This document shows, piece after piece, positions 2,435-63,310 of a stretch of DNA of 64,000 nt. The notes under the pieces were generated by a model that had not been told where the DNA came from, did not search any database, and worked only from the letters and a program-made list of their open reading frames with translations. Origin of the DNA: a virus (lineage: Duplodnaviria; Caudoviricetes); the IMG/VR virus record IMGVR_UViG_3300018079_000012, positions 560 through 64,559 of that record. One strand, given 5' to 3'. The first letter of the stretch is position 1, and every line of letters begins with the position of its first letter. The position numbers and the translations under genes were made by a program.

Positions 2435-3019
2435 CTACTCTAGGAATTTTCTGAGATCTCCTAGATTCACGTTAATATTCGTATCCACCACGCCTTGATC
2501 CGCTTGTATTTGTTTCGACGCATCTAACGCGAGTTTCTTTGTCATCGGATCGTCGGTCACGGCGCCTTCTAGGAGTAATTTGTTCAAGAATCCGGCACGC
2601 GTTTTCGCTCGGACGTCCGGTTCGAGATGATACACGTCCATAAGAGCTTGAACACACTCGACGACATCACGGCGTCCTTTGAATATAGTGTACGGCAGAC
2701 CGGACGTCTGTAACGCGGCGTCTTCGCGTACTATCCCAGATTTCACTAACTCCAAGAACCGCTCGGCGACTACAGCGTTTGCCGACGATTTCTCCCGTAG
2801 CTCAGGCCCAGATCGTCCGGGACCGGAGATATCCGCGGCTGATATAACGACGAAATTATCTCCCGGCGGGGCGTCTGGTAACGTCGGTGGGACTTCGGGG
2901 ACTTCTTCTCCTTCATCACCGCGAAACTCGAAGCCGACCGGCGAGGGATCGGCGGGCGGGGTATCGTCTGGGATATCCAGGAGCGGGATGTCGGAGAAGG
3001 TTTGGTATTTACGTTTCAT
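2435..3019 (-). CDS. hypothetical protein (acidic Pro-rich N-terminus, helical C-terminus)
   Basis: 194 aa ORF; ATGA overlap with the upstream gene; stop abuts tRNA-Pro. Confidence 0.65.
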   Translation of the reverse strand: MKRKYQTFSDIPLLDIPDDTPPADPSPVGFEFRGDEGEEVPEVPPTLPDAPPGDNFVVISAADISGPGRSGPELREKSSANAVVAERFLELVKSGIVREDAALQTSGLPYTIFKGRRDVVECVQALMDVYHLEPDVRAKTRAGFLNKLLLEGAVTDDPMTKKLALDASKQIQADQGVVDTNINVNLGDLRKFLE

Positions 3020-57286: not shown

Positions 57287-57457
57287 TTATCTTCCGACAT
57301 ATGCACCTTCTCGACGTAAAACTTCATCGACTAACTGAGATTTCAATAAATCTTCAAAGTCCTTTGGTTCCCCTGCCATCTGCCAACAGTCGAAGCACAA
57401 TCTGTACTTTGCTTTCCACAAGCCGTCTATTGAACGACGGCAAGCCGCGCATGTCAT
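57287..57457 (-). CDS. small Zn-finger protein (MTCAAC...CFDC)
   Basis: ATGA overlap with the polymerase stop. Confidence 0.5.
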   Translation of the reverse strand: MTCAACRRSIDGLWKAKYRLCFDCWQMAGEPKDFEDLLKSQLVDEVLRREGAYVGR

Positions 57458-60400
57458 TGGAGCACCAAAGGATTCTTGTCCGCCGCGTTCATCGCTTCCA
57501 GCCAATTCTCACCGAGCCCCGCGTCTACGGGACAAGAGAAGCCCGGTAATCTCCATGTCTCTTCTTGCATAAGTCCGATAAACTCCCCGCAGCGTTTATC
57601 CGGCCACTCGCGCGGGAGTTCATATACTAACTCGTCGTGTACCTGAAGGATCGGTACATATCCAGTTTCCCTACGGTATCGGAGCATAACCGCCTGTACG
57701 TGGTCGGCGGAAACGCCTTGCCCGTACGCCGCAAGGACAATTTTAGAGTCTTCTTCCATCGACCGCGTTAAAGCTGTCTCCTCACGAAACGGTCCGATAA
57801 GACGAATGAACCGCCCGGTCGGATATTTGACGTACCGACGGGCTTCGAATTCGGCTAACACTTTCTTCTGCCAGGCCCGGATCTGCGGGAAAGCGGCGAA
57901 GTAAACGTCCTCTTGGATTTCGAGGGCTTTTTTACGAGATCCAAACGATTCGTCTCCAAATAACATGTTGGCGAGATGTTTTCCAGTAAAAGCGACAACG
58001 CCGCCCGCAAAGGGCCAGTCTTTGTATACACGAAGGGCACCCGCCAGTATTGCGGATTTGACATAACTAGACTCCAGATCTTGTGACGTTACGACCTTCA
58101 AACCCATCCCGTAATTCGAATTACCGGAAACCATAACCCGGTCTTTATACCGGATCATGAAGTAGCCTGTCGAAGTCGAGAAGCAATACACCTTGCCAGA
58201 GAACGGACGTGTAAAGCGGTCCGCAGATCCCACACACATATTTCGTCGTTTATTAAACGACACGGTGTATACGAAACAACCCTTTCCGAATCCCCGACAC
58301 TGCGCGCCTCGCACTAATGCTTGAGTTCCAGACAAATGCGCAATGGTTTGAACCCATACTGCATTAGAGTAATTCGTTGTTCGGTACACTCGGGAATTAG
58401 GATATGTACTGCCATCCCACTTAGGTAACTCCGCTAAGAAAACCTCCCGCTGTCTTTGCGTCAGTTTCAGGAGTTCCGAAGTAAAGTTCTTCTGTTTTGT
58501 TCCGTCTAGTAATGGAGAAGACCATTTTACGTATCCTGCTCTACCATGTGGTTTGTGGTCAGAACAAGGCTTCAGTTTGCACGAAAACAAGGACTCCATA
58601 CGCTCGATTTTCCGAGTTTTTATAAAGTGGAACTTTACGTTACCCCATTTGTCTACACTTCCATCAGCCTGTACCGCAACCGCTTGCATAACCTCGCGGT
58701 CGGAATAGACCGGTCCGGGCGTAATAAGAACGCCAGAGGTCGCTAAGTAATCTTCGTTCTCTAAAGAGTCTATTCTGACTTTGTCTACATGCAGATACCG
58801 TTTCTTGCCCCAATTAGACCGTCGTATCTTAGGCAGTCCGTGTTCAGGTGTCCCTTCTATTGAGGCAGAACGTCCGTGTAATACATGAGTCGGACCTGTA
58901 TAATCATACTCGTGGTACTTTTCTGGCGTCTCAAAGAAAATCCCATACGTCTCGTCCCAGACTGCGATCTCTTGCCCGGACCACTTAGATATATCGATCC
59001 AGCCATTAGATGTTAGTACCTCATGTCCGGCTGCGACACAGCCGTGCGACGTGATCTTCGCTAAGTCTCTCGGTTTCTTACCGCCTAACTCTGCGGCTTT
59101 ATCGAATTTCCCCTCGGAGTTCTGAACTAACCATGTGAACAAATCCTTTGGGAAATCGCGGATGTCAAATCCTGCTAAATACATAATGCAGCGGGCTTCG
59201 AGCTGCTTGTAATCCGCTCGGCATAGCCGGAAATCCTGGCTACGCGGTATAATCGCCGCCCGCGCTTGTTTTCCTAACCCATATTTCTGGAAATTATGCG
59301 CGTTCGGAGAAGAAGAAGATAAACGTCCTAACGACGAGCCGGTCGTATTGAACCGCGAGTGTAGAAATACACCTTCCGACTCTTCGGTCAAATGCTTCTT
59401 ACCGAACCACGCTTCGGTACCCTTACCGCCTTCCTTGGACTTCCAGAGGTCTAACACCCCCGACTCTAACTCCGTTAACGGCGCCTCGGATAGTTGTTCT
59501 GCGACTTCGTTCGGTTTGTCGATAATCGAATACTTCCGGCCGATCTTTAGCATCTCGTCGCGGAGAGTGTTTTTCTGCGTATCTTTGAGCCGCAGACCAC
59601 GTTCCTGCATCCAGGTTTTAACTTGCAACGAGCTACGGGGGTTAAATCGCCGATTAGCTTCGGGGAATAGTGCGTCTTGGAGATTTGAGATCCGCAAGTT
59701 CAACGCTTCGACCGTCGGTATATGAACGCGCATACCGCGTTCGCGCATTACTTCGCAGAGGTCGGTTAACTCTAGTAACTCACGGCGGAAGGTTATTGGG
59801 ACCTTCATCCGGTCGAGTTCCTTGCTGTTCTCAACGTGAACTTTGAGTCCGGCCCAAGAATCTACACCGTTATAACCCCAGATGTTATGCGTCGGGCAAG
59901 GATATTGGCCGGAGCAGTACTGACGCCAACAAGACTTCCAGTTCGGGACGTCTGTGACTAACGATGTAGCGGACCATAAGTTCATGAAGCCGAGAGAACC
60001 GGGATCGTCGTCTTCCTCGCGGTACGCGATTTTACATAGATGCTGATTCGCGAGATAGTGTGTGAGCATCGCGTCTTCCCAGAAGTCCAGCGACGACGGG
60101 CACCCGGCGTTATCGAGGATCTTTTTGTCCGCAGAGATCGAGGAGTACCCGACGAGAGCGATATTATGACGTTTAGAAAAGTCTATGGCGTATTCGGCGA
60201 GCCGTTTGTCCCAACCGACCGACGCGGCTTCCCGGAGATTCGCGACGCCGAGGACGCTCGGACGTCCGGTGTCGGAGAATTCTAGATCTATCCCGAGACC
60301 TTCTGGTCCAGCGGCTTCTACTACACGTCGGAACGCGTCTGGGGTCCTATGTACCGGCGGGTATTCATCGGAAATCTCGTCGGACGACTTATGACTAGAG

Positions 60401-60459
60401 AACAACCCGTACTGAAGTTTAGCGTCCGGGAGAACGATTTGGAATTTACGCCGTGCCAC
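57454..60459 (-). CDS. polA: family A DNA polymerase with intein
   Basis: IDLEF exonuclease; GRLSSSSPN; motif A ADYKQLEAR; motif B RDLAKITSHG|SNYG; motif C QVHDELV. Confidence 0.93.
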   Translation of the reverse strand: MARRKFQIVLPDAKLQYGLFSSHKSSDEISDEYPPVHRTPDAFRRVVEAAGPEGLGIDLEFSDTGRPSVLGVANLREAASVGWDKRLAEYAIDFSKRHNIALVGYSSISADKKILDNAGCPSSLDFWEDAMLTHYLANQHLCKIAYREEDDDPGSLGFMNLWSATSLVTDVPNWKSCWRQYCSGQYPCPTHNIWGYNGVDSWAGLKVHVENSKELDRMKVPITFRRELLELTDLCEVMRERGMRVHIPTVEALNLRISNLQDALFPEANRRFNPRSSLQVKTWMQERGLRLKDTQKNTLRDEMLKIGRKYSIIDKPNEVAEQLSEAPLTELESGVLDLWKSKEGGKGTEAWFGKKHLTEESEGVFLHSRFNTTGSSLGRLSSSSPNAHNFQKYGLGKQARAAIIPRSQDFRLCRADYKQLEARCIMYLAGFDIRDFPKDLFTWLVQNSEGKFDKAAELGGKKPRDLAKITSHGCVAAGHEVLTSNGWIDISKWSGQEIAVWDETYGIFFETPEKYHEYDYTGPTHVLHGRSASIEGTPEHGLPKIRRSNWGKKRYLHVDKVRIDSLENEDYLATSGVLITPGPVYSDREVMQAVAVQADGSVDKWGNVKFHFIKTRKIERMESLFSCKLKPCSDHKPHGRAGYVKWSSPLLDGTKQKNFTSELLKLTQRQREVFLAELPKWDGSTYPNSRVYRTTNYSNAVWVQTIAHLSGTQALVRGAQCRGFGKGCFVYTVSFNKRRNMCVGSADRFTRPFSGKVYCFSTSTGYFMIRYKDRVMVSGNSNYGMGLKVVTSQDLESSYVKSAILAGALRVYKDWPFAGGVVAFTGKHLANMLFGDESFGSRKKALEIQEDVYFAAFPQIRAWQKKVLAEFEARRYVKYPTGRFIRLIGPFREETALTRSMEEDSKIVLAAYGQGVSADHVQAVMLRYRRETGYVPILQVHDELVYELPREWPDKRCGEFIGLMQEETWRLPGFSCPVDAGLGENWLEAMNAADKNPLVLQ
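58120..59040 (-). mobile_element. intein (307 aa) with LAGLIDADG-like endonuclease, inserted in PolA motif B
   Basis: N-terminus CVAAGHEVLTSNGW, block B TPEH, VQADG/KWDG, C-terminus KVYCFSTSTGYFMIR...VSGN followed by Ser. Confidence 0.9.
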
Positions 60460-60628
60460 ACAGCCTCTTGTACATAGTATTTAGCTCTTCGTCGGACATG
60501 TAGTACAACTCTTTAAGATGAATCTTAATTGTTGCCCAAGGCGCAGTCACGATATAGGTACCTTCACCAACCTCGACGGCTTCTGCAAACATTATGTCAC
60601 GCGCCGCTCGGATTTCTTCTAAAGTCAT
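60446..60628 (-). CDS. small hypothetical protein
   Basis: Coupled between the UDG-like gene and polA. Confidence 0.45.
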   Translation of the reverse strand: MTLEEIRAARDIMFAEAVEVGEGTYIVTAPWATIKIHLKELYYMSDEELNTMYKRLCGTA

Positions 60629-61368
60629 TAGAATAACATTAACGGTTCAACTAACTTCTTCACAGACTTCTTTCTTCGCCACGACGCCGGAGTCACAGGT
60701 CTAAAGTTTTTCAGAACACTCGTCGTCGGCGATATTAACTTCCGTTCCGTCCGCAGACTCCCGGCAAAATAATGCCCGCGCCAATAACTCACACCCCCAA
60801 TGCCTTCAATAGCGGGTAAAACCAACGCCGCAGCTTTATCGCCGCACAGTACGCAGACCCGGTAACCCTTCTCCATAAACCGCGCGGCTTTCTCAAAGTC
60901 CCGGCGGACAAGGAAGAAGTACGCGTTTTCGCGCAGTACGGCGGCTGGATGTAAAGTAATAACAAAGAGATTAGGATCCCAGTCAGCGATCCCGCCGGGA
61001 GCCAAATTCCCTCTTTGGTCACCATGATACCAGTCGTACTGGCGGCAGACTTGCTCGGCTTTCTTCCGCGTAGGGCCGTTAGGATATTCATTTTCCTCTC
61101 CCCGGCACCGGATACAATTGTCCAAGATAACGTCGTCGCGTTCCAATCCTAACGGCCGCAGAAAAGCGTGGAACATTAGGTCTCCGGACATACCGACGAG
61201 CGGTGTACGTTTGAGAGCTTCGTTCTCGCCGGGTGCTTCCAGTAAACACGCGAACTTAGGATATTTAGGGACCCAACCGGGGACGAAACTGTGTGACGAC
61301 GAGGACCACGGACATAACGCGCAGAGCGAAGGCTTACTGAGGACGCCGAGGATAGGAAAGGTCGTCAT
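60628..61368 (-). CDS. uracil-DNA glycosylase family 4-like protein
   Basis: CALCP, EAPGENE, PLVGMSG, DNCIRCR, HPAAVLR. Confidence 0.85.
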   Translation of the reverse strand: MTTFPILGVLSKPSLCALCPWSSSSHSFVPGWVPKYPKFACLLEAPGENEALKRTPLVGMSGDLMFHAFLRPLGLERDDVILDNCIRCRGEENEYPNGPTRKKAEQVCRQYDWYHGDQRGNLAPGGIADWDPNLFVITLHPAAVLRENAYFFLVRRDFEKAARFMEKGYRVCVLCGDKAAALVLPAIEGIGGVSYWRGHYFAGSLRTERKLISPTTSVLKNFRPVTPASWRRKKSVKKLVEPLMLF

Positions 61369-61380
61369 TAGATATAACTA

Positions 61381-61475
61381 GGGAGTGAGACGCTGGAAGT
61401 TGTAGTCCGGCTTAACAAGCTAAGGGCCGGTGTCTACTCCCCCGTTTATTCCCCTAAATATTCACGGCGTCTCCC
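61381..61475 (-). ncRNA. candidate rod-like structured RNA downstream of the split tRNA
   Basis: GAGACGC/GCGTCTC, GTAG/CTAC and CCGGC/GCCGG nested stems; strand uncertain. Confidence 0.4.
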
Positions 61476-61485
61476 ATAACTCTAG

Positions 61486-61974
61486 TGGGCCATTCGGGAG
61501 TTGAACCACGAATTTGGCGCTTATAAGATACCGGCTTCTACTTCAGCATGACAATTACTACATAACATGTCACACTTCCTCAATTCCTTTAGGACAATTT
61601 TCCAATTCTTAGAGTATGCTAAAGAAAGAGAAAACATCTTCGAGGCTTTATTCCTATGATGAAATTCCAAAGCCTTTATACAACGTGAGTAACCACACTT
61701 TTGGCACTTTCCACCTTTTGTTTCGACCATCTTCTTCTTTATCAAATCCCTACGGGATCTGTTGTATACCACCGCGCGTTTCTTACGTGATGTATATACT
61801 ATGCAGGGAAGAGGTCTTGTATTGTACTTGCCGAATGGGGAACATACTAAGCAGTACTTTCGGTTTCTAAGAAATCTTACTTTGCCTTTTATGACAACCC
61901 TACGTGGAAAACTTGAGTTACAGTTTTGACAAAACATTAAATGCGCCCGCTCTAGTCCGTTGAGCTAATGGCCC
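61486..61974 (-). tRNA. tRNA-Ile(UAU) split by a 415-nt HNH insertion (halves 61943-61974 and 61486-61527)
   Basis: GGGCCAT/ATGGCCC-A acceptor; GCTC/GAGC D-stem; GGCGC/GCGCC anticodon stem; loop CTTATAA; GGTTCAACTCC T-arm. Confidence 0.75.
61521..61937 (-). CDS. HNH endonuclease inserted in the tRNA
   Basis: CQNC...CLVC; KGGKCQKCGY...ALEFHH...ELRKCDMLCSNCHAEV; AT-rich. Confidence 0.9.
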   Translation of the reverse strand: MFCQNCNSSFPRRVVIKGKVRFLRNRKYCLVCSPFGKYNTRPLPCIVYTSRKKRAVVYNRSRRDLIKKKMVETKGGKCQKCGYSRCIKALEFHHRNKASKMFSLSLAYSKNWKIVLKELRKCDMLCSNCHAEVEAGIL

Positions 61975-61984
61975 GAAGATCATA

Positions 61985-62048
61985 AAAGTGGCCGCGTTTG
62001 TCCCCCACGCGTTTAACGAGAACCTAGGGGTCGTTCTCGCACCACTCT
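61985..62048 (-). ncRNA. candidate three-way-junction RNA with complementary loops
   Basis: AGTGGT/GCCACT stem; CGAGAAC-GACCCCTAG-GTTCTCG; CGCGT-GGGGGACAA-ACGCG. Confidence 0.55.
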
Positions 62049-62056
62049 AACGCCCG

Positions 62057-62152
62057 CCGACTTGTAGTCAGCGAACGTTACTGGCTGGGTCTTTAAGCCG
62101 CCCCATTTAACTCCACCCTGGTCCGCGCGGAGCACCCCTGACTACTAGCCGA
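62057..62152 (-). ncRNA. candidate ~96-nt structured RNA
   Basis: TCGGCTAGTAGTCAG/CTGACTACAAGTCGG closing stem (14 of 15 pairs) with inner hairpins. Confidence 0.5.
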
Positions 62153-62153
62153 T

Positions 62154-62756
62154 TTACACTTCGAACGTCATCACGTATCGAGCCGGATCGGCCGCCGCTT
62201 TCTTAGCGAATCTCTCTGCGTCCGTCTTCGTCGCGGGGAAGAAGTACCCCACGTCGTAGAAGCGTGTCAGGGCGCCCGTGTCGCGGTCTTTCTTTTGCTG
62301 CATAACATACCCGAATATAGCACCGGGCTCAGGTGGGTCGGCCGACGCGTTTCCTTCGGAGTACTTCATAAACCGGTCCGCGAGTAACCGCTCAACTCCG
62401 TCCGGCGATTTATCGGCGAGCGAAATCAACTCATCCGATAACGTCAGATAACGCTCATCGGCAGATTCGTCACTGCCAACGAACGCGCGTAACGCTGGTG
62501 TTTGATCCGACGCGACGTTCTTAGAAAAAACGAACATCGGGCCTTTCTCCAGCGAATTAGGGTCGAAATTCTCCACCAGCCAATCCGGCCGGTACATGAA
62601 GTTGTATTTCGTTGAACGACCGGCTTGGATAGCTTGGATCTGTACGTTAGTCATCACGTAACCAGCGGGCGACAACTTCGTCGGTCCGACAGACGCAACG
62701 CGACCGATGCAGACTAAATCCGGCTGCTCGGGAATATCAGGTGCTTTGAACGGCAT
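62154..62756 (-). CDS. hypothetical replication-region protein (possible ssDNA-binding OB-fold)
   Basis: SD AAGGAG; location next to a Sak4-like gene; function is a guess. Confidence 0.55.
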   Translation of the reverse strand: MPFKAPDIPEQPDLVCIGRVASVGPTKLSPAGYVMTNVQIQAIQAGRSTKYNFMYRPDWLVENFDPNSLEKGPMFVFSKNVASDQTPALRAFVGSDESADERYLTLSDELISLADKSPDGVERLLADRFMKYSEGNASADPPEPGAIFGYVMQQKKDRDTGALTRFYDVGYFFPATKTDAERFAKKAAADPARYVMTFEV

Positions 62757-62793
62757 TACTATCTCCTTTGTTTCGATTTTCAGCGAACGTGAC

Positions 62794-63165
62794 CTACTGT
62801 ATTACTACGGGCTTAATCCCTTCCTTCTGCCCATCGAGAATAGCCCGTATTTGAGTTACCATCTCGGCGCCCATAACTACCATGACGCCCACGATCTCCG
62901 GTTTAATCATCTCCGGGATTTTGAACTCCGACGCTACGAATATAACATCGTGCGGCGACGTGATCCAGCCGTATTTGGGGGTACTGGCGAGAAAAGTAAC
63001 GACGCCGTTGACCGTCTTGTACATCTCGTTCATCAACTCCGCCCATAGTTGCTCGGCGGTCTTCGGCGGAGAAGCGGGATCGACGGTGACACTTTCTCCT
63101 ACCGTGCCTTCCGGAGTCGGAGTAGTGTTAATTTCTCCCGGTACTGGTGCGTCAGTCTGTTCCAT
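62794..63165 (-). CDS. hypothetical protein
   Basis: SD AAGGA. Confidence 0.6.
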   Translation of the reverse strand: MEQTDAPVPGEINTTPTPEGTVGESVTVDPASPPKTAEQLWAELMNEMYKTVNGVVTFLASTPKYGWITSPHDVIFVASEFKIPEMIKPEIVGVMVVMGAEMVTQIRAILDGQKEGIKPVVIQ

Positions 63166-63310
63166 AACTATTCCTTAAGTCTCGATGACTTTAAATAAAG
63201 CGCCAGTAGCACAAAATAGGTGCCCCAAGCAGGCTCTCCAGTATACACAGAAACAGCAGCGCCTGCTAAAGAACTAATTTCTAGAAGTGCTAATATTATT
63301 ACCCACAGCA

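Follow-up and report, generated by a model that had tools for sequence, protein, structure and literature searches.

A bare HNH endonuclease gene inside a phage tRNA-Ile(UAU) gene: most likely a DNA-level insertion that arrived without a splicing element

How does a nuclease gene come to lie in the anticodon loop of a transfer RNA (tRNA) gene when nothing around it resembles an intron? The question is raised by positions 61,486 to 61,974 of a 64,000-nucleotide (nt) stretch, referred to here as the window, which makes up nearly all of a 64,559-base IMG/VR virus record (IMGVR_UViG_3300018079_000012). At this locus a tRNA-Ile(UAU) gene is split by an open reading frame (ORF) for an HNH endonuclease, both on the minus strand. 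The usual view is that a homing endonuclease persists within a gene only under cover of an intron or an intein. An original prediction, made from the sequence letters, had recognised the split gene and proposed that it could be (a) a protein-spliced intron sealed by the phage RNA ligase, (b) a tRNA-like clamp on the nuclease mRNA, or (c) a homing element that recently inactivated the tRNA. We consider it probable that a free-standing gene for an HNH homing endonuclease entered its likely target at the DNA level, leaving behind a young split tRNA pseudogene. The parts of the locus are as follows.

61943..61974, minus strand: 5′ half of tRNA-Ile(UAU), 32 nt, with the acceptor strand, the D arm and the 5′ strand of the anticodon stem (from the sequence and from ARAGORN with introns allowed)
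61974-61968, minus strand: acceptor strand GGGCCAT, followed by TA
Within the 5′ half, minus strand: D arm GCTC/GAGC with a 9-nt loop, followed by G
61947-61943, minus strand: 5′ strand of the anticodon stem, GGCGC
61938..61942, minus strand: 5-nt spacer ATTTA leading from the anticodon-stem strand to the ATG, without a Shine-Dalgarno sequence
61528..61942, minus strand: the insert (the "intron" of ARAGORN), 415 nt, AT-rich and of foreign composition, without a ribozyme core
61521..61937, minus strand: HNH ORF of 138 amino acids (aa), carrying an HNH domain and, at its N-terminus, a zinc ribbon; ATG at 61937, TAA at 61523-61521
61486..61527, minus strand: 3′ part of tRNA-Ile(UAU), 42 nt, with the loop, the 3′ strand of the anticodon stem, variable region, T arm, acceptor strand and discriminator (ARAGORN)
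61527-61521, minus strand: anticodon loop CTTATAA, anticodon UAU
61520-61516, minus strand: 3′ strand of the anticodon stem, GCGCC, followed by the 4-nt variable region AAAT
Around 61508, the position of a bulged T, minus strand: T stem TCG[T]GG / CCCGA around the loop TTCAACT
61493-61487, minus strand: acceptor strand ATGGCCC, followed by the discriminator A at 61486
61483..61485, minus strand: CTA, where the two intact tRNAs of the phage encode CCA

ARAGORN in its default mode misses this gene. With introns allowed, it reports a tRNA-Ile(tat) of 75 nt at 61485-61974 with a 415-nt intron after nucleotide 32, removing 61528-61942 exactly as the original prediction had done. ARAGORN's intron position is the 5′ edge of the anticodon loop, the break falling between standard tRNA positions 31 and 32 (nucleotides 32 and 33 by count). 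The sequence spliced in silico is still called, at 110% of the threshold; calls for the five intact phage tRNAs used for comparison reach up to 110-120%. An ARAGORN intron call is weak evidence on its own, since ARAGORN reported an intron-tRNA 3 times in 30 dinucleotide shuffles of the 64-kb window, and in 2 of these cases the intron was at least 300 nt long; this amounts to about 0.1 false calls per shuffled window. At this locus the borders match the ends of the HNH ORF, lying within 5 nt of its start and placing its stop codon in the loop, and the ORF belongs to a family tied to tRNA genes (see below), so that chance is not the explanation. The insert is almost all coding, as had been claimed, the ORF leaving only 5 nt. 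The canonical CTTATAA loop is supplied by the 3′ end of the ORF and consists of its final seven bases (the end of its sense codons and the TAA stop), with the stop codon inside the loop. The rebuilt tRNA carries two lesions, both noticed at the outset: the T stem is bulged by one base and CTA stands in place of CCA. The T loop and the following CCC are the same as in a tRNA-Ile(UAU) near one of the HNH homologs (locus L023), whose T stem is regular, and a tRNA-Tyr of the single relative described below likewise ends in CCA.

The ORF matches phrog_2255 with an expectation (E) value of 1.9e-30, and eight more HNH families also match; the Pfam HNH model gives an E of only 0.049, under its cut-off. 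A protein search returned 373 homologs, the best with 65% and 63% identity over the full length, and the best 70 cover 94-100% of the query. In an alignment of 14 sequences (13 homologs and the ORF) the HNH motif residues C78, C81, H93, H94, C126, N128, C129 and H130 are invariant, as are the zinc-ribbon residues C3, C6, C29, C32, S33, P34 and F35 (CxxC...CxxCSPF). The N- and C-termini of the ORF align with those of its homologs; both ends being family ends, the cassette is exactly one complete ORF. By its sequence the ORF is thus a complete long-form member (zinc ribbon plus HNH) of a free-standing HNH homing-endonuclease family, with a predicted cleavage activity. It occurs once in the window. 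Its GC content is 37.9% compared to 52.2% for the window, and that of the insert is 37-42% compared to 52-60% for the flanks.

Splicing elements of several kinds were sought. Rfam, searched over 60400-63200 at E values up to 10, gave 3 chance matches and no intron, tRNA or group I intron model RF00028. A second search used a profile of our own, made from 39 tRNA-intron group I cores. This profile recovers cores in L154, L184, L042 and L075, all below the threshold of Rfam, and finds none in the window, where its sole match covers 29 nt over the coding end of the HNH gene (E 0.71). A group I intron would show U at the end of the 5′ exon and G at its own end; the borders in the window have C and U there (GGCGC|A and U|C), and no shifted borders give an identical spliced product. 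For a group II intron there is no Rfam match, and the 415-nt insert is occupied by the HNH ORF. The earlier observation that no bulge-helix-bulge (BHB) can be built at the borders also stands. With the geometry taken as two 3-nt bulges and a 4-base-pair helix, only 1 of the 4 central-helix pairs forms at the actual borders, and 35 loose motif matches elsewhere fail to join the halves. The splicing endonuclease PF01974 is absent from the virus record (the control matched in 4 archaea), and RtcB was not found in the phage. The T4 Rnl1 family PF09511 matched neither the phage nor the control genomes. Within the insert, no tRNA-like element was matched at E values up to 10, its non-coding part being 5 nt. 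The 521-nt precursor shows no unusual degree of structure (z = -1.75), and in its minimum-energy fold the acceptor and anticodon stems pair across the insert.

Four constructions of the locus could be set aside: a group I intron (missing core and wrong border bases), a group II intron (missing ribozyme domains, insert filled by the HNH ORF), a BHB intron (1 of 4 central pairs at the borders), and two adjoining tRNA copies, each truncated, which would need two exact deletions.

The relatives of the nuclease were examined at 184 homolog loci: 24 from the single-protein search, and 80 viral and 80 genomic loci from an alignment-based search, these being the best 80 of 548 and the best 80 of 562 confirmed, respectively. 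A tRNA lies in the flanks of 15 of the 24 single-protein loci and of 111 of the 160 alignment loci (73 of the 80 in the viral set): this HNH family is tied to tRNA genes. The two are often flush with each other, although several of these loci duplicate one another: in L003, L007 and L021/L022 a tRNA 3′ end precedes the HNH ATG by 2-7 nt, and in L004, L020, L021-L023, L025 and L026 the HNH stop codon falls inside the next tRNA or at most 13 nt from it. Among named phages, Bacillus phage Bastille carries a homolog between two tRNA-Asn genes and Escherichia phage VEcB one that ends 1 nt before tRNA-Pro in a stretch of 13 tRNAs; near the homolog of phage FO1a no tRNA is annotated out to 1.5 kb. 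The closest homolog (P0001, 65% identity) has a C-terminal tail that aligns with a complete tRNA in translation (E about 1e-4 in a comparison with 597 tRNAs), and this tail copy abuts an intact tRNA.

ARAGORN places the HNH match within an intron-tRNA of the same orientation at 38 of the 184 loci; its intron calls for L041, where the orientation is opposite, and its second calls for L085 and L088 (a 983-nt "intron") were taken as ghosts and not counted. Thirty-five of the 38 are bacterial genome contigs, mostly with tRNA-Asn(GUU) or tRNA-Thr(UGU), and all 35 contain a group I core, 33 above the Rfam gathering score (7/7, 19/20 and 7/8 by batch) and 2 by our own profile. The HNH protein of these introns is a short form which matches the window protein from residues ~33-62 to the end and lacks the zinc ribbon. 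The short-form introns (510-680 nt, in L138-L192, for example L163 1430-2053) have the ORF right after the 5′ splice site and occupy the anticodon loop of tRNA-Asn(GUU), tRNA-Thr(UGU), tRNA-Gln(CUG) and, in one call, tRNA-Ser; their contigs are labelled candidate phyla radiation (CPR), Nitrospira, Acidobacteriota, Planctomycetes, Omnitrophota and others. A collaborative-homing layout is seen in L127, L129, L130 and L134 (tRNA-Thr GGU), in L045 and L109 (tRNA-Asn GUU) and in L061. In L004, ARAGORN reports a tRNA-Leu(UAA) with an 896-nt intron at 416-1401, and the HNH homolog of this locus (2635-3006) has an internal stop codon.

Searching for HNH homologs enclosed by tRNA halves, as had been suggested with the original prediction, turned up four further elements without a ribozyme, making five distinct ones with that of the window. 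The first, present at L085 110-695 and L088 1263-1848 (99.7% identical), is a perfect tRNA-Ile(UAU) split after U33 by 512 nt which hold a tRNA-like element (29.1 bits with the Rfam tRNA model) and an HNH gene with a different N-terminal domain. Positions 158-629 of L085, inside the tRNA, are 85.8% identical to L074 1312-1782, an intergenic cassette between tRNA-Arg and tRNA-Lys in an array of 18 tRNAs from the same metagenome. Since one cassette is seen in both places, the comparison shows, at the level of sequence, a related cassette that moves between intergenic and intra-tRNA sites. The second element, L048, has a full-length HNH gene enclosed by well-formed acceptor, D and T arms but lacks a credible anticodon arm. 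The other two, L108 and L132, were found by our own scan for acceptor, D and T arms around an ORF and checked for a group I core with our own profile; by our reading their anticodon stem is not restorable. L132 (83-829) has an intact tRNA-Ile(GAU) and a full-length HNH gene inside the remnant of another tRNA-Ile(GAU), which consists of acceptor and D arm and then loop, T arm and CCA, an arrangement in which the nuclease seems to bring along a substitute for the tRNA that it disrupts. The anticodon arm can thus be restored in 2 of the 5 elements and not in the other 3 (L048, L108, L132), and the break points differ. The enclosed elements look like DNA-level insertions near the anticodon arm, not like constrained introns. 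Both detection methods need paired halves and decayed cases are invisible to them. As a separate observation, ARAGORN reports at L085 2013-2085 (= L088 3166-3238) a tRNA with a four-base anticodon (taaa), implying an 8-nt anticodon loop.

Among the three explanations first offered, inactivation by a homing element fits best, in view of the free-standing form of the HNH protein, the foreign GC content, the cassette found in two contexts, the three of five elements that are not restorable and the two lesions. A foreign, AT-rich, bare ORF cassette would have entered the tRNA-Ile(UAU) gene of the phage at the break described above and split it. No splicing element came along with the nuclease gene, and the tRNA is for that reason most likely a young pseudogene, broken rather than spliced. 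The sequence immediately upstream of the split tRNA contains neither a sigma-70-like nor a TGTAACC-N16-CGTC promoter, which makes read-through from upstream genes likely; the intact nuclease gene would be transcribed in this way. Like some other genes of the phage, it has no Shine-Dalgarno sequence. Intron-borne and intein-borne endonucleases follow the logic of occupying their own target site, and here the same logic would operate without a splicing element: the target of the enzyme may be the anticodon-arm DNA of the tRNA gene, whose occupancy would protect the genome from self-cutting. Loss of the tRNA would be tolerated if, as seems plausible, phage tRNAs are dispensable.

Several observations weigh against this account and have to be set beside it. 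That the tRNA is a pseudogene is something we infer, and neither an insert-less allele nor a decayed relative was found in the searches made. Positions 61300-62200, used as a DNA query against a phage collection, gave no match, and neither did the product of the neighbouring 200-aa gene at the protein level; exact searches for parts of both tRNA halves among viral contigs gave 0 matches and no uninterrupted allele; and no insert-less allele was seen among the contigs of three sequencing runs, in which rare variants are dropped. All 16 pairs of the acceptor, D and anticodon stems are intact and the canonical loop bases are kept, and the spliced form scores on a par with the intact phage tRNAs. 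The tRNA would also be useful, since of the 668 Ile codons counted across 42 long ORFs (some of which may be spurious) 179, or 27%, are ATA, and the phage has no second tRNA-Ile. L085 provides an independent loop-split tRNA-Ile(UAU) which restores a perfect cloverleaf. Finally, the other tRNAs of the phage are neighboured by a calcineurin-like phosphoesterase gene and by a gene of the RNA-ligase family (PF09414, E 1.2e-11):

2354-1770 (within 1734-2434), minus strand: calcineurin-like phosphoesterase ORF; its ATG is 5 nt past tRNA-Pro, without a Shine-Dalgarno sequence, and it runs 54 nt into tRNA-Leu(UAA)
454-1440 of the record, minus strand: RNA-ligase-family gene, just downstream of the phosphoesterase gene and extending past the window start

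The one relative that we found helps to place these genes. Locus scans with the neighbour genes recovered the same 64,338-base record three times (L002, L027, L028; G001), syntenic with the window and with ~70-75% DNA identity. Its gene order indicates that the record of our phage is circularly permuted and, given this permutation, the ligase and phosphoesterase genes are on the strand of the split tRNA, ~2.5-3 kb upstream of it. In the slot that matches the split tRNA, from the 200-aa gene to a uracil-DNA glycosylase (UDG)-like gene, the relative has tRNA-Ala(UGC) and tRNA-Tyr(GUA). It has no tRNA-Ile, Leu or Pro, and no HNH gene was found in it by a search of the record that included no positive control. 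The two tRNA sets (Gln, Ala, Tyr and Met(CAU) in the relative; Leu(UAA), Pro(UGG) and the split Ile in the window) have none in common, from which we conclude that the tRNA genes are accessory and turn over fast.

If the tRNA was not simply broken, its halves might have been kept or reused as a tRNA-shaped scaffold of the nuclease mRNA, no longer serving as a tRNA. The clamp of the original prediction is in this sense a live secondary explanation, although we think it unlikely. The acceptor and T arms would pair across the insert, RNase P and 3′-end enzymes would trim the transcript, and the folded ends would stabilise or gate a poorly translated mRNA. The flush arrangement of family ORFs and tRNAs described above (ATG 2-7 nt after, stop inside or within 13 nt of the next) speaks for such a role, and so does the phosphoesterase gene of this phage, whose spacing of 5 nt from tRNA-Pro to an ATG without a Shine-Dalgarno sequence equals that of ATTTA and ATG at the split tRNA. 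It is also consistent with the pairing of acceptor and anticodon stems across the insert in the minimum-energy fold, and with the retention of acceptor, D and T arms around the ORF in L048 and L108 though their anticodon arm is gone. The scan that found such cases demanded intact arms, however, so that their survival is partly an effect of ascertainment. Moreover, a ribosome would have to melt the anticodon stem both to start 5 nt past it and to stop in the loop, the bulged T stem falls in the part of a tRNA that is read by RNase P, and no series of conserved examples supports the scaffold.

A true intron without a ribozyme, in which the acceptor and anticodon stems keep the halves together while host or phage RNases cut the borders, and the RNA ligase of the phage, assisted by the phosphoesterase where ends must be healed, turns them into a working tRNA-Ile(UAU), strikes us as improbable. 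The halves are exactly restorable, and the frequent ATA codons, the missing second tRNA-Ile and the ligase and phosphoesterase genes near the locus on the circular map would all suit it. The 5′ border, GC|AUUU, fits what we take to be the RNase E consensus, but the 3′ border has no matching cut motif. Ribozyme-free introns called "enigmatic" in a report on Lak phage tRNAs (PMC6784885) offer a precedent. Against this, the insert holds neither a tRNA-like element nor another recognisable processing signal, and BHB, splicing endonuclease and RtcB are all missing from the phage. The T-stem bulge and CTA are left unexplained, and 3 of the 5 comparable elements are not restorable. Modules of ligase and phosphoesterase are ordinary counter-measures to anticodon nucleases (T4 Pnkp/Rnl1); nothing found speaks directly for sealing by the ligase. 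The original prediction had taken the intact pairing across the halves as an argument for splicing or for a clamp; this carries little weight, because only halves that still pair can be detected and their intactness is partly an ascertainment effect.

It is more doubtful still that the locus is the remnant of an HNH-bearing group I intron that later lost its catalytic core. Group I introns that interrupt a tRNA anticodon loop do carry HNH genes of the same family at 35 of the 184 loci, and there the ORF begins immediately past the 5′ splice site. Those intron-borne forms are short and without a zinc ribbon, whereas the window protein is of the long form and its best homologs are full-length; no trace of a core was detected by Rfam or by our own profile, the border bases are C and U, and the deletion would have to be base-exact at the ORF end. 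Least of all do we expect an artefact, whether ARAGORN called the tRNA by chance or the assembly is chimeric: false intron calls in shuffled windows and a depth of only ~7 leave some room for it, but the borders coincide with the ORF ends, the cloverleaf is of high quality, both junctions are bridged with 0 differences by contigs of two sequencing runs (possibly the source samples, and so not independent support), and four further enclosed elements exist elsewhere. We allow a small chance that the explanation lies outside all of those considered here.

Insertion into the tRNA gene, which we favour, can be compared with several known systems. Free-standing endonucleases of phage tRNA clusters include the T5 enzymes F-TflI, II and IV. 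HNH genes are present among the clustered tRNAs of many lytic phages, T5-like ones and others (PMC10194208), and the GIY-YIG enzyme SegB of T4, free-standing in a tRNA cluster, recognises a conserved tRNA T-arm motif in DNA (PMC2330249). In each case a small nuclease gene lies among tRNA genes; those genes are placed between tRNAs, whereas that of the window is inside one, whose anticodon loop supplies its stop codon. Transposition-like insertions that split genes are represented by mobE in nrdA of phage Aeh1 and by mobA in the topoisomerase gene of T4 (PMC2988022). There too a functional gene has been cut in two by a free-standing HNH gene, and neither intron nor intein accompanies it. Those split proteins reassemble from their two polypeptides, whereas a tRNA cut in the anticodon loop needs ligation; the gene split in the window is an RNA gene and probably dispensable.

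With the group I introns that interrupt tRNA genes, of which 21 types are listed by Williams (2020, bioRxiv 10.1101/2020.01.27.920355), the locus shares an anticodon-loop insert with a homing endonuclease, the short form of which is found in 35 of our loci. It differs in the lack of a catalytic core, of U(-1) and of omega-G, and in an ORF that fills all but 5 nt. Archaeal BHB introns can also encode homing endonucleases, as does the rRNA intron encoding I-DmoI. Their inserts are likewise mostly endonuclease ORF, but the window has no BHB at its borders and the virus no splicing endonuclease. The introns of Lak megaphage tRNAs, one of them maybe itself encoding a tRNA (Devoto et al. 2019, PMC6784885), are alike in that a phage tRNA is interrupted by an insert of no recognised self-splicing type. 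They differ in that the insert of the window holds no tRNA-like element, while that of L085 has one. The literature searched, supplementary tables (such as those of PMC6784885) excepted, yielded no account of an HNH ORF standing by itself in the anticodon loop of a tRNA.

Several features were noted around the locus and in the comparison with the relative. The 179-nt GC-rich spacer upstream of the split tRNA (61975-62153, minus strand) forms long hairpins (z = -2.04), including a three-way junction at 61985-62048 that had been pointed out with the original prediction, and cannot be aligned with the relative. Between the split tRNA and the UDG-like gene, ~95 non-coding nt (61381-61475, minus strand) are conserved in the relative (L002 2616-2692, 71% identity, with identical blocks); they are closed by a long-range helix, and their fold does not stand out from that of shuffled sequences (z = -0.58). 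The family A DNA polymerase gene (57454-60459) includes ~920 nt (58120-59041, minus strand) that are missing from the polymerase gene of the relative, which is continuous at L002 7578-7580; judged by this comparison the segment is probably an intein. The UDG-like gene of the relative has ~1 kb (L002 3040-4070) without a counterpart in the window. At 60452-60626 a contig of the third sequencing run skips 173 nt which hold a 60-aa ORF (60446-60628), with 4 other letters between; this points to a related strain without the 60-aa gene.

Were the tRNA spliced after all, it would provide a tRNA intron without ribozyme or BHB in a bacterial virus, and thus a new route of tRNA splicing in bacteria, with the endonuclease gene a harmless passenger and not a gene-killer. 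As it stands, one HNH family shows several stages together: free-standing beside tRNAs, within group I introns, and naked in an anticodon loop. Collaborative homing and endonuclease-gene invasion, given as routes to mobile introns in PMC3984707, become testable here with a small enzyme and a 74-nt target. For the phages themselves, the locus indicates that selfish nucleases can erode tRNA sets, and such erosion may help to explain why two phages ~70% identical in DNA share no tRNAs at all.

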